A program made the translations under genes and the position numbers. From Promethearchaeota archaeon (GTDB lineage Archaea > Asgardarchaeota > Heimdallarchaeia > Hodarchaeales > Hodarchaeaceae), in contig JBHLMN010000003.1 of assembly GCA_048938105.1 (NCBI GenBank), forward strand, positions 128,001 to 192,000: DNA of 64,000 bases, in the 5' to 3' direction. Below are positions 1,417-8,680 of this stretch, piece after piece. The notes under the pieces were generated by a model. The model was not told where the DNA came from, ran no database searches, and saw nothing but the letters and a program-made list of their open reading frames with translations. The number at the start of each line of letters is the position of its first letter. Positions within the stretch are counted from its first letter, which is position 1.

Positions 1417-3012
1417 GTGATACTTAGAATGAAAAAAAGAAAATACAGTACACCACTCGCAGAAGCAATACACATAGCTTATACGAGAGGTGAGGGTGAT
1501 GAAGATTTAGAGTCACTTGTACTTGTTGACAATGATAACAATCCGATTGGTCGTTTTATGCCTAATGATGCTTTAATTTTTGCGAATATTAGAGGTGAAC
1601 GAGAGGTTGAATTGACTCAAGCGCTTACATCCAAAAAATTTAGTCATTTTCAAACGGTGCCTCTCGATCTCTGTGTTACGACAATGATTCAATACCATCC
1701 TGATCTCCCTGTAAATATTGCATTTCCTCCTACAGCTAATCTTAACAATACATTGACAGAATTCCTCAGTGAACATGGGATGCGAGTATTAAAATGTGTT
1801 GAAAGTGAAAAGGCTATTCATTTAACTTATTTCTTTAATGGAAAACAACATACTCAATTCAACAACGAGGATCGCCTAATTATTCCTTCCCATGAAACAG
1901 AAAATTTAGCAACTTTTCCAGAAATGAAATCTCACGAAGTAGCCAGCGAGACTATCAAAGCAATGAAAAAAGGGAGATATAACTTAATTGTTACGAATCT
2001 ATCTCCATGTGATGTCATGGGACATATTGAGAATAAATCTGTAGTTGGTAAGGCAATACGTACGGTTGATGAGGAACTAGGGAATATAGTAGGTTCAGCG
2101 ATTATTTCTGGGTACACGGTTTTTGTAACGGCGGATCATGGAGTTGCAGAATCATGGCTTTATCCTGATGGAGCTATTGATACTGGGCATACTTCTAATC
2201 CAGTACCTTTTTTATTAATTTCTGAAAAGATTAATGAGCTGAAATTAAGAAGTGATGGTTCTCTGGTTGACATTGCTCCAACTATTTTAGAAATCATGGG
2301 ATTAGAAAAACCACTGGAAATGGAAGGAAAAACTCTCCTGAAAGACACGATGCAATATAAGAGCCAAAGAGTTCTTCTTTTAATCTTAGATGGATGGGGA
2401 TATAATCCGAATTCATATGGAAATTTATTCCTAGAATTTGGTACCCCAAATATGGACAATTTAAAAATTAAATACCCTTTTACAACTCTTATAGCCTCTG
2501 GGCCTCGTTTAGGTATGCCAGAAGGAACTGTTGGTAATAGTGAAATTGGTCACCTTCATATGGGGGTAGGGAGACGAGTAATTAGCGATCGTGTTAAGAT
2601 ATTTGAAGCCATTGATACAGGAGAATTTTTTCAGAATTCTGCTTTTCTAAAGGCTATAAACTATGCGAAGAATAATGAAACTTCATTGCATCTGCTAGGG
2701 ATTATTAGCTTCTATAGTTCCCATGGCTCAATTAAATATCTTGAGGCACTCATGGAGCTTGCCAAAAGAAAGAAAGTTGAAAAAGTTTATTTACATGGAA
2801 TGCTTGGCCGACGAGGTGAAAAACCTGAATCAGGAGCCCATTACGTAAATCAACTCGAACTTAAAGCCAAACAAATGGAAAATACGAAAGTAGTTTCCAT
2901 CATTGGTCGTCATTGGGCACTTGATAGAGAAGAGAATTGGGATAGAATTGTAAAAACATATGAAATGTTAGTAAAGGGTAAGGGAAGACAGATAGAAGAT
3001 ATAAATTCTTGA
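1417..3012 (+). CDS. gpmI: 2,3-bisphosphoglycerate-independent phosphoglycerate mutase (bacterial GpmI type), circularly permuted
   Basis: GpmI motifs present (ILDGWG, GNSEIGH, NIRGER, ESEKAIHLTYFFNG, PEMKS, CDVMGH, TADHG, HTSNPVP, DIAPT), but the canonical C-terminal part precedes the canonical N-terminal part. Confidence 0.88.
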   Translation: MILRMKKRKYSTPLAEAIHIAYTRGEGDEDLESLVLVDNDNNPIGRFMPNDALIFANIRGEREVELTQALTSKKFSHFQTVPLDLCVTTMIQYHPDLPVNIAFPPTANLNNTLTEFLSEHGMRVLKCVESEKAIHLTYFFNGKQHTQFNNEDRLIIPSHETENLATFPEMKSHEVASETIKAMKKGRYNLIVTNLSPCDVMGHIENKSVVGKAIRTVDEELGNIVGSAIISGYTVFVTADHGVAESWLYPDGAIDTGHTSNPVPFLLISEKINELKLRSDGSLVDIAPTILEIMGLEKPLEMEGKTLLKDTMQYKSQRVLLLILDGWGYNPNSYGNLFLEFGTPNMDNLKIKYPFTTLIASGPRLGMPEGTVGNSEIGHLHMGVGRRVISDRVKIFEAIDTGEFFQNSAFLKAINYAKNNETSLHLLGIISFYSSHGSIKYLEALMELAKRKKVEKVYLHGMLGRRGEKPESGAHYVNQLELKAKQMENTKVVSIIGRHWALDREENWDRIVKTYEMLVKGKGRQIEDINS

Positions 3013-3023
3013 TAAACATTCTA

Positions 3024-3455
3024 TCACGAATTATGATTCGATACTGTTTTGATGAAATTGGTAATTTGAAATAAAAGCTTTGGAATACTATTATATGAGT
3101 GAAGTGTGAGATTTGGAGAGGTGTTTCCCAAAATCATTGCTGATATAACTCTGTTTCCTTCATAAACTGCTAATACGGGTTTATTGAGATTTAAGGCTGT
3201 TGCTATTTCATAACCAACTCCTAAGCTGGGAATTGATACTTCAGCTATCATAATATCACATATTTGCAGCCAATTTATATCTTGGGTGAAAATCTCTGCA
3301 TTAGACATTGAATTTTCAATTTCAATCACATTGGGTGAAGCAACATGATGAGTTAAAACTTCGTGGCCATTGCTTTGGAGATGGTCATAAATTAGTGCAT
3401 AATTAGCCTGCAGCTCACGGCCTCCACGAATCGACGCGGATAGATAGATCTTCAA
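3024..3455 (-). CDS. Nucleoside 2-deoxyribosyltransferase family / DNPH1(Rcl)-like deoxynucleotide N-hydrolase
   Basis: KIYLSASIRGGR, DINWL..CD...AEVSIPSLGVGYE, SAMI motifs; TTG start. Confidence 0.85.
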   Translation of the reverse strand: MKIYLSASIRGGRELQANYALIYDHLQSNGHEVLTHHVASPNVIEIENSMSNAEIFTQDINWLQICDIMIAEVSIPSLGVGYEIATALNLNKPVLAVYEGNRVISAMILGNTSPNLTLHSYNSIPKLLFQITNFIKTVSNHNS

Positions 3456-4234
3456 TTAATCATCTCCTCTTTCTTTTTCGCATTAAGTAAAAGCTGACAT
3501 AATTCTCGTACTTTCGTATCAGCCGTCTCTTGAGCTAATAAATTGAGTATTTTCATTAATTGCGCTTTTTCAACTAATACTATTTGATTTTTCTTACAAA
3601 AATCTTTTATCTGACGATCTAGAATAGGATTGGAATGTAAAAGAGCTGCAAGAATTTGGAAAACTGTATTATCTTTGCGGCCTTTTCTTAGAGCTTTAAG
3701 AGCCTTATTAGGAGATTTATGGAAGTTTCCAGAACGATAGACTGAAATAATTACAGGATACCAATCTTTGGCTCGTGTTTTCAGCCAATCCTGAATTTCC
3801 TTAATATCATTAATTCTTTCTTCCCAGTGCTTTTTAAATTGCTCATCAGGAAATCCTAACTCAGGCCACGCTTGAATCTTGGCCAATAATTCTACATATT
3901 CCTGGTAACGCGAAATTTGAGCCTCTCTCTCTCGGATACTAAATTCTAACGTCCCTAGAATAAACCCAGGAGAAAATTCTTTCAAGCTAGATTCAAGGCT
4001 TTCTGTAAATATAATTGCTTTACCTTGGTTTAGAATTTCACGATTTTTCTCTAATACTTGTTTAGATTTCATAGGAATTTCTTTTGGGTGGTGATCAAGA
4101 TAATCTAACGCCCAAAAAAGGAACATAGCTTCAAGTTGAAACTTTGTAGAGCGTATAAAATTCGCTAGATCTTCTGGCTTTTCGTTAAGAAGAAGCGCTT
4201 TTACCTGTTCAAAATCAATTTTGGGATCAACCAA
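3452..4234 (-). CDS. Hypothetical helical protein
   Basis: 260-aa ORF co-directional with both neighbours; 4-bp overlap with the downstream gene. Confidence 0.7.
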   Translation of the reverse strand: MVDPKIDFEQVKALLLNEKPEDLANFIRSTKFQLEAMFLFWALDYLDHHPKEIPMKSKQVLEKNREILNQGKAIIFTESLESSLKEFSPGFILGTLEFSIREREAQISRYQEYVELLAKIQAWPELGFPDEQFKKHWEERINDIKEIQDWLKTRAKDWYPVIISVYRSGNFHKSPNKALKALRKGRKDNTVFQILAALLHSNPILDRQIKDFCKKNQIVLVEKAQLMKILNLLAQETADTKVRELCQLLLNAKKKEEMIN

Positions 4235-4302: not shown

Positions 4303-6507
4303 TCAACCAAGTAACATTCGGTAGACATCTTTAGGATCATGTTCACCAGGAGCTCGGATTTTGAAGCGAATCTCAACCTTCTGTCCAGGTTGAACCTCAT
4401 TATAAATCCATTTCATTGCCTTACCATCTTTCACAGAAGAATGCTCCTCAAATCCAACGGGTGGATCTTCCTTTGTATCAGACACTAATTCGAAACCCTT
4501 GGGCAAGAAATCACTTACTTCTACATTTTTGATAACAGCAGTACCCTCATTTTCACCTCGAATGACAATTTCATACTCATTCAGGGCCTCACTGGAAGTT
4601 GAACGCACCATCTTACCAATTTTTAATTTACGGCGTTCATGTATAACGGTGATTGGACCTGCTTCTGCTTCAGCTGTAACAGGTTTAACTGGGGGAAAAA
4701 TATTTGCCAATACTGTGATATTTCCCAGAAATTCATCATCTGGTGTAGCAGTAGCGAAAAACGGATAAGTAATCAGGAGTTCTTCATCTTGTTTCAGTGT
4801 TCCAATATCCGAATATTCGAGACGTTCTATTGTTATAATCAAATTACCATCCGTCACTTCCAAATTATAATCATCGTCTGAAACCTGTTTAGCACCTTTT
4901 ATAATCGAAATAACCTCTTTAGTTGGAGGTTCAAAGCCTTCTGGAATCTGATCTTGGAGTTGTAGATATTCAACATCTGTACTTCCAGTAGATCGAATAA
5001 CATTTTCAGTTTTAACCTCTGTACGCCTATAAGAAGGTATTACAAGAGGTGAGAAAGACTTTGAGACTTCAATATCCATAAATCGTAGTGCATAACCAGG
5101 GAGAGTACATTCAGCTACTATCTCAGCATCATATAGATATTTTACTGATAAATCCAGTTCACGACCAAATTGAGGAATAACTCCATCTTCTTCGACAGTG
5201 ATTGTCCATGGATCAAGACTGAATGTCTCACCAGGGTCAATAGACCGTTCCTCCTCAGGAAAATCACTGCCTAACCATTCTAGTCGAATATTTCCGTCTT
5301 CAAGAGGACCTTCATAAATCCTAACTTCCTTCAAATCCATCTCAAACTCGGAAGTGTTTTCTAATTCAAATTTACAGTCAAAATCACCAGGGTTCTCTTC
5401 CTGCTCATCGCGGGAGATAAATTGGAATACTGATGAAGAACCTGTAATTGTCTCTAGATTGATACCAGAAAGGCTTTTTTCAAAACATCTGTATGTAACA
5501 ACCGTATCTCCAACCTTATATGGTTCTGCTGTGTCTTCTGGTAGTGTAACTCGCATTTCGCAACTAGCCTTCGTTGTAGAATTTGCTGGAATTTCATCAA
5601 CTTTCCATTGAATGAATTCTCCTTCTTTATTGAATTCCCCATTTTCAGTTTGAAAATTTTCTACAATGGTAGAAGGATCAGAAATATGTTTTCTTAGAAC
5701 TACTTCTGTTAAAGACCAATCAAATTCATTAGTCAGTTCGATTGTGAAATGTATTCCTGTTTCAGTACCTCGAGCGAAGGTAGGAGGGGATTCTGGCTTG
5801 TCTAGATCCCAAAACTCTTCTTTAATTTTTACTCGTGGTGCTTCTACTTGGAAATCAAACTTTACACCTTTTGTTTCCTGCGCTGAGAGCTCTTTGATTC
5901 CAAATGAGTTACCAAAGACCACGATTTCTTGATCTTCACTACGATCGAAGGTTACTTCGTCTACACCTTCTAGGAAGGCATCTATCGCCCAAATTCGATC
6001 ATTTTTACCCATATTTGTGACACCGATTTCCCCCTTTCCTTGTAAAGATTCAATGGGTTCATCATTATCACCTATTAGATTGTTATCCTTATCAATTCGA
6101 TAGGTTAATGTTTCCCGCAATTTAACATTAAGCCCAGCTTGTTTTGCTTCATGTTCTTCTAAGGCACGAAAATCCTCCCTAGCTCTTGCTGCATCTTCTT
6201 CCGAAAAATCAGTTTCAGGAAGAGGAGTTCCTGATTCTCGAATGGCTTTGGCAGCATCACTTGCCTTATTTCTAGTACCTCGATCCTTGTCGTTTTTCCC
6301 GACCCTTTCAAGAACTTCAACAGCCTCTGGGTCGTTTAACTTAACAAGAGAATCAATGGCTTCTTTTCGTACATCTTTTTCATCATCTTGTTCGATAACC
6401 TTAAGCAGTGCTCGAAGAGCAGCTTTTGTACGAGTATTTCCCAGTGCTTCTGCTGATTCTTTTCGCTTATTTTTATCACTACTTTCCAAATTTTTCATTA
6501 CGGACAT
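4303..6507 (-). CDS. HEAT-repeat protein with beta-sandwich domains (mu-homology-like and DUF11-like)
   Basis: N-terminal HEAT/PBS repeats (RKESAEALG, VRKEAIDSL, TRNKASDA) followed by ~600 aa of acidic beta-rich sequence; no signal peptide visible. Confidence 0.7.
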   Translation of the reverse strand: MSVMKNLESSDKNKRKESAEALGNTRTKAALRALLKVIEQDDEKDVRKEAIDSLVKLNDPEAVEVLERVGKNDKDRGTRNKASDAAKAIRESGTPLPETDFSEEDAARAREDFRALEEHEAKQAGLNVKLRETLTYRIDKDNNLIGDNDEPIESLQGKGEIGVTNMGKNDRIWAIDAFLEGVDEVTFDRSEDQEIVVFGNSFGIKELSAQETKGVKFDFQVEAPRVKIKEEFWDLDKPESPPTFARGTETGIHFTIELTNEFDWSLTEVVLRKHISDPSTIVENFQTENGEFNKEGEFIQWKVDEIPANSTTKASCEMRVTLPEDTAEPYKVGDTVVTYRCFEKSLSGINLETITGSSSVFQFISRDEQEENPGDFDCKFELENTSEFEMDLKEVRIYEGPLEDGNIRLEWLGSDFPEEERSIDPGETFSLDPWTITVEEDGVIPQFGRELDLSVKYLYDAEIVAECTLPGYALRFMDIEVSKSFSPLVIPSYRRTEVKTENVIRSTGSTDVEYLQLQDQIPEGFEPPTKEVISIIKGAKQVSDDDYNLEVTDGNLIITIERLEYSDIGTLKQDEELLITYPFFATATPDDEFLGNITVLANIFPPVKPVTAEAEAGPITVIHERRKLKIGKMVRSTSSEALNEYEIVIRGENEGTAVIKNVEVSDFLPKGFELVSDTKEDPPVGFEEHSSVKDGKAMKWIYNEVQPGQKVEIRFKIRAPGEHDPKDVYRMLLG

Positions 6508-8292: not shown

Positions 8293-8680
8293 TCATTTTT
8301 TTCTTGATTTGAATTTCTGTACAAGAATAATCAAGGTATAAACAAATCCAAACAAGAAAAAAGTTATTCCTACAATGTTGAAAATCAAAGCAACATTTGT
8401 TATTAATCGAATGTAGGGAGTATCTATGTTTTCTATAAAATCACTCATTATTAAGGTAATACTACTAAGAAAAAACAGTACCGCAATAACATAAATTCTT
8501 TCTTCTTTCTTCAAAAGCAAAATACAACACATCTAGAGGAAAAAATATCTTATTATAACAACTAATATCTAAAACCATTGGATTCATAATAAATAGCTTT
8601 GTTTCTATTACACTCACTATAAAGAATATCAGTAAATATATCAATATACAGCTATAAATAATCTCCCTACAAATATCCAA
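8293..8680 (-). pseudogene. Probable frameshifted small membrane protein (two overlapping hydrophobic ORF fragments)
   Basis: 8465..8680 and 8293..8532 are both hydrophobic and overlap in different frames downstream of tmk. Confidence 0.35.

Follow-up and report, generated by a model that had tools for sequence, protein, structure and literature searches.

A predicted mu-homology domain on a soluble beta rod in Hodarchaeales: fold, family and a candidate docking role

The locus and the architecture of P0001

The protein described here, P0001, has 734 residues and is encoded by a single open frame at 4303-6507 on the minus strand of a 64,000-nucleotide stretch of contig JBHLMN010000003.1 (hereafter the window; G+C approximately 35%), which comes from an archaeon of the Hodarchaeales. 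The gene is present in a single copy in its own genome, which is 5.85 Mb in size and 99% complete. In brief, a short HEAT head and a linker are followed by a predicted mu-homology domain (MHD) and a series of beta-sandwiches. The features, with the evidence that defines them, are:

4303-6507, minus strand: the whole P0001 gene, 734 residues, single copy
6232-6507, minus strand: HEAT head, residues 1-92, three PBS-lyase-type repeats (HEAT_2); Pfam, structural model and VIA structure comparison
6133-6231, minus strand: acidic linker and one long helix, residues 93-125; helix at 103-122, predicted local distance difference test score (pLDDT) 53-79, net charge -6
5404-6138, minus strand: predicted MHD, residues approximately 124-368; domain model, VIA, Foldseek and an MHD-only profile
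5482-5841, minus strand: MHD subdomain B, residues approximately 223-342, a DUF11-type sandwich; PF00928, hhalign and VIA
5092-5403, minus strand: domain 3 (D3), residues 369-472; conserved motif and alignment ranges of the full-length model
4636-5091, minus strand: domain 4 (D4), residues 473-624, an immunoglobulin (Ig)-like sandwich related to DUF11; VIA and hhalign
4306-4635, minus strand: domain 5 (D5), residues 625-734, a DUF11 (TIGR01451) sandwich; Pfam and TIGR01451

The full-length AlphaFold2 model of P0001 has a mean pLDDT of 89.9, and confidence is lower in the linker at 93-125. The original prediction, which was made by eye from the sequence, placed three HEAT repeats at the N-terminus, and this was borne out. 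HEAT_2 (PF13646) matches residues 5-85 with an E-value of 3e-13 and 50.2 bits, above its cut-off of 27.7, HEAT_PBS matches at E 1e-5, and residues 2-92 are modelled as six helices with pLDDT above 90. By VIA the head aligns with Z 12-15 and a root mean square deviation (rmsd) of 1.6-2.0 over approximately 90 residues; the matches include alphaRep (8aw4_B, Z 15.2, 31% identity), YibA, the CpcE/MpeQ bilin-lyase repeats and beta-adaptin (Z 12.2).

Further Ig-like sandwiches had also been predicted, and the model places beta-sandwiches after the MHD at residues 375-470, 476-622 and 628-720, the last being the DUF11 domain. D3 carries the most conserved motif of the family (P373, C378, N384, S386, F388 and P445). 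D4 is matched by VIA over residues 476-622 to the SpaD, RrgB, BcpA and EbpC pilins and to cohesins, with Z 12-15. D5 is matched by DUF11 (PF01345) at residues 628-719 with E 2.9e-11 and 44.1 bits, above the cut-off of 24.6, and by TIGR01451 with E 7e-6. When D4 and D5 were compared with each other, hhalign gave 96.9%.

P0001 has a net charge of -63 and contains 4 Cys. Each of its beta domains is acidic or neutral, with no domain reaching a net positive charge above +2. The N-terminus is hydrophilic, and the highest Kyte-Doolittle mean over 19 residues is 1.01. In agreement with what had been noted from the sequence, neither a signal peptide nor a transmembrane segment was found in P0001, nor in 73 of the 74 members of its family (Kyte-Doolittle mean below 1.6). 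We read P0001, from its sequence, as a soluble, very acidic and presumably cytosolic protein.

Structural evidence for the mu-homology domain

A domain model of residues 118-372 (255 residues) was made with AlphaFold2 (pLDDT 93, predicted TM-score 0.84) and aligned by VIA, with no prefilter, to 48,161 PDB representative chains. Every one of the ten best matches is an MHD, with Z from 11.8 to 16.2, and covers both subdomains (model residues 4-245), with an rmsd of 2.5-4.1 over 197-211 residues. The best is mu4 of adaptor protein complex AP-4 (4mdr_A; Z 16.2, rmsd 2.5, 202 residues), and mu2 (Z 15.2), mu3A (Z 14.7), mu1 (Z 14.3), bovine delta-COP (Z 13.6), SGIP1 (Z 12.4), Syp1 (Z 12.1) and yeast delta-COP (Z 11.8) are also found. 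Below these ten, Z falls to 10.6, and the matches there are single sandwiches lying on model residues 106-225, that is, on subdomain B only. With the full-length model, the match to mu4 reaches a Z of up to 17.6, with rmsd 2.3 over 217 of its 245 residues. Foldseek gave whole-MHD matches with TM-scores of 0.60-0.67 (0.61-0.67 for delta-COP and mu2), as against TM-scores below 0.26 and rmsd above 20 A for multi-Ig matches such as integrin legs.

In the model, subdomain A is made up of residues approximately 126-221 together with a returning strand at approximately 350-368, and subdomain B is inserted at approximately 223-342. The MHD alignments of the full-length model reach residues 470-473, adding approximately 15-27 aligned residues to those of the domain model. 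Because of this extension, we suggest that the last strand of the MHD is probably the one at 457-469, and that it comes after D3 as an insertion. On the strength of the model comparisons, residues approximately 124-368 of P0001 very probably adopt the MHD fold, with two subdomains in the eukaryotic arrangement. The original prediction had called for such a comparison, and had set a chain of tandem DUF11/CARDB-type Ig domains lacking MHD topology as the contrary outcome; what the structure searches returned was the MHD topology.

Sequence evidence and the relation to DUF11

Sequence comparison points in the same direction. The Pfam family PF00928 (Adap_comp_sub) matches residues 246-354 of P0001 with its positions 121-233 (E 0.0013, 18.5 bits), and the match to PF10291 (muHD) is marginal (E 0.08). 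PF00928 matches 31 of 64 diverse family members at E < 0.01, the lowest value being 1.9e-10; a single member, P0123, scores above the curated cut-off (34.9 bits). PF00928 matched no gene other than P0001 in the 5.85-Mb genome, and even at E <= 1 it matched nothing in 14 prokaryote genomes used as controls.

We built an MHD-only profile from 28 diverse loci (alignment A4). When it was compared with the PDB, all 22 matches at E < 1 were MHDs. The best was delta-COP (E 0.007), collinear over positions 2-181 and running from strand 1 of subdomain A into subdomain B. Three segments had been pointed out by eye as recalling mu-adaptin and delta-COP, and all three align at the corresponding MHD positions in the expected order. 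In brief, VKLRETLTYRI...GKGEIGV is the first strand pair, in which the family-invariant E132 and G159 align with the start of the delta-COP and mu2 MHDs; IELTNEF...IQWKVDEIP sits in subdomain B, within the region matched by PF00928; and VTYRCFEKSLSGINL, which contains SGINL, aligns with a mu2 segment ending in SGLKV when the family profile hidden Markov model (HMM) is compared with PDB chains. We regard this sequence support as weak and MHD-specific.

Subdomain B also resembles the C-terminal DUF11 domain of P0001 itself: hhalign gave 97.7% and E 1.9e-12 against D5, and 94.5% against D4. In some family members (P0098, P0119), Pfam DUF11 outscores PF00928 on the same stretch. We read the archaeal subdomain B as a likely bridge between prokaryotic DUF11 domains and the eukaryotic MHD. 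Its resemblance to both suggests that the insertion of a unit of DUF11 type gave rise to the MHD.

Family and distribution

An exhaustive HMMER search of 1.84 billion representatives gave 2,100 matches at E <= 1e-3, of which 281 were at E <= 1e-10. Many of these span residues approximately 125-734 in one stretch, and others cover only the HEAT or the DUF11 part. From the word-indexed and exhaustive HMMER searches we made a family alignment of 74 sequences (A1). In the word-indexed search, the closest homologues of P0001 are of equal length, 44-87% identical, and come from metagenome-assembled genomes (MAGs) named Hodarchaeales, Hodarchaeota or Heimdallarchaeota. A search of 20 further genomes of the genus recovered a homologue in 19. 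In one of these (G003) only the HEAT part was recovered. The gene is there cut by the contig end, which explains the missing remainder, and we rejected the idea of a truncated form consisting of HEAT repeats only.

The HEAT head is found in only 8 of 64 family members. The remaining members start at the MHD, at a domain of approximately 115 residues with the motif FG.VEL, or with a polybasic or proline-rich N-terminus. It appears from the alignments that the conserved core of the family consists of the MHD, one family-specific sandwich and two DUF11-type sandwiches, and that the three-repeat HEAT head was added in front of it in Hodarchaeales and a few other lineages of Heimdallarchaeia.

Of 300 genomes drawn from across the phylum, 251 have a match to the family profile at E <= 1e-20, and many of them carry one to four copies; these cover 64 of the 70 genera and 76 of the 89 high-quality genomes. 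Named members belong to Heimdall-, Loki-/Promethearchaeia, Baldr- and Borrarchaeum. One branch, represented by P0099, which has a proline-rich N-terminus, and by relatives of P0099 at loci L031-L037, comes from MAGs titled Thalassarchaeaceae, Thermoplasmatota or Euryarchaeota UBA, i.e. Marine Group II. P0099 is matched to P0001 with E 9e-29 over residues 155-725. Because of this branch, the MHD-rod family is not confined to Asgard archaea.

Members of the family have been published before as candidate eukaryotic signature proteins. Supplementary Table 3 of Eme et al. 2023 (Nature 618:992, PMC10307638) lists such members under PF00928, and P0079 and P0098 share N-terminal residues with the listed Lokiarchaeales_B53_G9 and Helarchaeales_Hel_GB_B. 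These two are collinear with P0001 over residues approximately 150-725 (approximately 570 residues; E 6e-35 and 8e-29) and align with it in A1 and A3. The listed candidates share with it the core order of MHD, WDC..FEN.SEF domain and DUF11-type domains. In roughly 36 of the 44 entries of that table, the sequences are labelled Loki-, Hel-, Hermod-, Jord- and Gerd-/Heimdall-, with no Hodarchaeales entry among them. The passages of the paper that deal with these domains report Pfam matches only, describe the mu C-terminal domain as sparsely distributed owing to divergence, and state that AP domains are not fused to one another. A structural-modelling paper from 2026 (PMC12962969) mentions Asgard adaptor-protein homologues, in its passages on the subject, only as patchy. 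Our literature search found no paper that tests the MHD fold of this family or describes its architecture.

P0001 thus joins, as a new member, a family of candidates that was already in print. What is added to the entries seen in Eme et al. is structural support for the fold from structure prediction, a near-universal distribution (the 251 of 300 genomes given above), the link to DUF11, the HEAT head of the P0001 subfamily and the association with a helix-hairpin-helix (HhH) protein described below.

Genomic neighbourhood

Two genes flank that of P0001:

6775-8049, minus strand: P0004, the upstream neighbour, 424 residues; N-terminal beta domain and four HhH pairs (Pfam HHH_5 x4, E 4e-26)
3452-4234, minus strand: P0002, the downstream neighbour, 260 residues, helical; no Pfam or NCBIfam match

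The four HHH_5 units of P0004 resemble those of Pol IV, RecG, RadA and RuvA. The P0004 gene lies directly upstream in all 19 other genus genomes in which it was found, including two (G014 and G015) discussed below; no other neighbour of the HEAT-headed forms is as strictly conserved. In two other families of Heimdallarchaeia (f4 and f6), HEAT-headed members likewise have a multi-HhH gene next to them, there in divergent orientation, and none was found at approximately 20 loci without a HEAT head. Because the HhH neighbour co-varies with the HEAT head, we suggest that the two may work together. Several genomes of the genus have extra small open reading frames (ORFs) just upstream of the P0004 gene, which resemble only the first approximately 100 residues of P0004. 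A 79-residue ORF at 8293-8532 in the window was considered as a copy of the P0004 N-terminal domain and rejected on comparison.

The P0002 gene adjoins that of P0001 in most genomes of the genus and lies elsewhere in G014 and G015. The linkage that the original prediction had proposed to follow up therefore exists, only within the genus and with these two exceptions. It says little, since the whole region is syntenic among close relatives. In an atlas search, no match to P0002 scored as high as 0.8.

Neighbours were compared at 27 loci belonging to many families, and no conserved neighbour of trafficking type was found; only HhH genes, beside HEAT-headed forms, and genes of the metallo-beta-lactamase (MBL) fold, beside short forms, recur. 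At eight loci from four other families, an MBL-fold gene (Lactamase_B_3, approximately 235 residues) lies directly upstream of a short (approximately 595-residue) MHD gene and on the same strand:

L011:5203-5910, same strand as the MHD gene: MBL-fold gene
L012:7938-8627, same strand as the MHD gene: MBL-fold gene
L013:7870-8580, same strand as the MHD gene: MBL-fold gene
L014:7846-8649, same strand as the MHD gene: MBL-fold gene
L015:7844-8539, same strand as the MHD gene: MBL-fold gene
L016:7853-8551, same strand as the MHD gene: MBL-fold gene
L022:5179-5883, same strand as the MHD gene: MBL-fold gene
L029:5219-5923, same strand as the MHD gene: MBL-fold gene

L011 and L012 retain the HxHxDH motif, which is degenerate in L014 and L022; this degeneracy suggests that the MBL-fold neighbour may be a non-catalytic partner. 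Other neighbours are a PAS/hemerythrin protein (L017) and a GH26 protein (L019). Tail to tail with a Lokiarchaeia-type MHD gene, L020:4459-5565 on the plus strand encodes a protein of 368 residues with no Pfam match and a long basic tail rich in Ser, Thr and Lys, which has a 28%-identical relative at C52:422399-423199 in the genome of the window. No beta-propeller protein was found among the neighbours scanned at L017, L019 and L020; that of L020 has, by eye, no resemblance to one.

Three further genes of the window deserve mention. A cofactor-independent phosphoglycerate mutase at 1417-3012 on the plus strand has Pfam Metalloenzyme (103-298) ahead of iPGM_N (396-525), a domain order consistent with circular permutation. 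At 3024-3455 on the minus strand lies a nucleoside 2-deoxyribosyltransferase-like gene (PF05014, E 2e-11), which is probably co-translated with the P0002 gene because it overlaps the end of that gene by 4 bases. An ORF at 3-572 on the minus strand is cut off by the edge of the window, and Pfam gave nothing for it at E <= 0.01; a homologue is syntenic in G011.

Comparison with known mu-homology and DUF11 proteins

The MHDs of the AP-1 to AP-4 mu subunits and of delta-COP (4mdr, 9fiw, 4ikn, 1w63, 4o8q) share with P0001 the fold in which B is inserted into A, with Z 13.6-17.6 and rmsd 2.3-3.6 over approximately 200-235 residues. The alignment is collinear at the SG-x-h-h return strand as well as in the first strand pair. 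P0001 differs from them in having no N-terminal longin domain, in the two sandwiches that follow, and in what the model suggests is an extra domain of approximately 90 residues before the last MHD strand. Identity is only 8-16%, and the weak alignment shows no match at the residues of the tyrosine pocket. The AP mu and delta-COP MHDs carry a basic lipid-binding patch, whereas P0001 is acidic.

The muniscin MHDs (SGIP1 5awr, Syp1 3g9h; PF10291) have the same fold as P0001 with Z 12.1-14.0, and in them, as in P0001, the MHD lacks a longin domain and is a C-terminal or internal module of a larger scaffold. Unlike in P0001, it is paired with an F-BAR or other membrane-binding region and a disordered linker. 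Compared with proteins of the DUF11/TIGR01451 type, D5 of P0001 is a clear DUF11 domain, with homologues in D4 and in subdomain B of the MHD. A typical DUF11 protein sits at the cell surface, carries an export signal and has many repeats in tandem; P0001, in contrast, has no export signal and carries one DUF11-type unit inside the MHD.

Proposed function and alternative explanations

Characterized MHDs (AP mu, delta-COP, muniscins and stonins) are docking platforms for motifs or partners. Because characterized MHDs act in this way, we propose docking as the function of P0001, and we consider it rather probable that the protein is a soluble cytosolic docking scaffold, with an MHD platform on a rigid beta rod and exchangeable heads. 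By analogy with every characterized MHD, the platform would bind short peptide motifs or partner proteins. The rod would serve as a spacer, and the lineage-specific head would recruit a lineage-specific partner, which for the HEAT-headed forms would most likely be the neighbouring multi-HhH protein.

It should be noted that several observations weigh against parts of this reading. The PF00928 score of P0001 itself, 18.5 bits, is below the curated cut-off of 31.6, and all PF00928 sequence matches are confined to subdomain B, which is itself of DUF11 type. A weak HMM alignment of the first strand puts K129 and N127 at the positions of mu2 D176 and F174, residues of the tyrosine pocket for YxxPhi, which in this alignment are not matched. 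As for the partner, one HEAT-headed locus (L041) has no HhH neighbour, and the related genomes in the synteny counts are non-independent observations. By eye, oligo-T runs follow both the P0004 gene and the P0001 gene, which suggests that the two may be on separate transcripts.

The weak sequence E-values against MHDs (0.007-0.04), the homology of subdomain B to the protein's own DUF11 domains and the members in which DUF11 ranks above PF00928 would fit a chain of DUF11-type Ig domains in which two sandwiches are packed like an MHD by chance, with no common ancestry with the eukaryotic MHDs. We consider such analogy unlikely. One rigid superposition takes both subdomains with an rmsd of 2.3-3.3 A, and only MHDs occupy the first ten places among the 48,161 chains. 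The collinear alignment with delta-COP crosses from the first strand of subdomain A into B, the invariant E132 and G159 coincide with the first two strands conserved among MHDs, PF00928 is silent in the control genomes, and P0123 exceeds the Pfam threshold. A genuine MHD, and its presence on one chain together with HEAT repeats, could instead be taken, along the lines of the original prediction, as a single-chain proto-coat or adaptor. Its HEAT repeats would be a trunk as in adaptins, its MHD would bind cargo, its Ig domains would resemble appendages, and the whole would act in membrane budding or cargo sorting. Weak AP3B1_C matches in 4 of 64 members (best E 4e-4), a match to Alpha_adaptinC2 (PF02883) in 1 of 64 (E 7e-6) and the placement of the host's archaeal group closest to eukaryotes in the relevant passages of Eme et al. 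2023 (PMC10307638) speak in favour of this proposal. Here we part from that proposal, which we regard as quite improbable. The head has only 92 residues, fits alphaRep, YibA and bilin-lyase repeats at least as well as it fits beta-adaptin (Z 15.2 versus 12.2) and is absent from most family members. Adaptin_N (PF01602), the trunk of approximately 500 residues, has no match on P0001, and matches other ORFs, generic HEAT proteins, and 6 of the 14 control genomes. No longin domain (PF01217) was found on P0001, the best E-value in the genome being 0.24 on another contig, and the P0001 model contains no beta-propeller. The AP3B1_C matches are stretches of approximately 35 residues inside DUF11 matches, the ear domains PF02883 and PF09066 have no match on P0001 in Pfam, and D4 and D5, compared as parts of the full-length protein, appear closer to pilin, cohesin and DUF11 folds than to adaptin ears. 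The charge of the protein, with no domain above +2, and the lack of a conserved trafficking gene among neighbours across lineages also argue against it, and no pointer to membrane binding was found for P0001 in sequence, model or neighbourhood. Of the adaptin- and COP-related reading, the MHD fold is what stands; overall, P0001 is neither an AP or COPI subunit nor a coat by itself.

The HhH neighbour, the most strictly conserved one in the genus, brings in a different reading, namely that the acidic rod and the multi-HhH protein tether or organize DNA or repair factors at the nucleoid, with no role in trafficking. The resemblance of the P0004 units to those of DNA-processing proteins such as Pol IV, RecG, RadA and RuvA would agree with this, as would the recurrence of HhH genes beside HEAT-headed forms in the two other families; their different orientation there argues against simple inherited synteny. 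Adjacency is not interaction, however, and HhH modules mediate protein-protein contacts too; the oligo-T runs separate the two genes. Both the HEAT head and the HhH neighbour are missing from most members, and a role on DNA therefore cannot be the conserved function of the core. We hold this reading to be unlikely as well. Finally, DUF11 and the folds resembling Gram-positive pilins are typical of surface proteins, and an adhesin-like protein exported by an unconventional route might be imagined. This is highly improbable, given that 73 of 74 members have neither signal peptide nor transmembrane segment, that HEAT heads are typically intracellular, and that P0001 is strongly acidic with a hydrophilic N-terminus and only 4 Cys.

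Significance

The MHD is the module by which eukaryotic vesicle adaptors (AP, COPI and muniscins) grip cargo or partners, and its origin bears on the open question of how membrane trafficking arose. Asgard candidates formerly rested on weak Pfam matches and were called sparse in the published passages cited above; there is now a confidently predicted fold in a Hodarchaeales member and a near-universal family behind it. The docking scaffold that we favour also cautions against reading a coat from one domain, as the context of this MHD points to a generic docking scaffold, possibly with a partner of DNA-binding type. A well-predicted, soluble protein of 734 residues and its neighbours offer a concrete object for testing.

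Subdomain B links by sequence to both PF00928 and the prokaryotic DUF11 domains. We tentatively speculate that the MHD is of archaeal origin, formed when one sandwich, of DUF11 type, became inserted into a second, and that this near-universal Asgard protein may represent the ancestral stock of the MHDs in AP mu, delta-COP and the muniscins. The ancestral job would then have been the docking of motifs rather than coat assembly; the protein would have been a rod in the cytosol, with exchangeable heads to select its partner, and the partner in Hodarchaeales would be an HhH protein of DNA-binding type.

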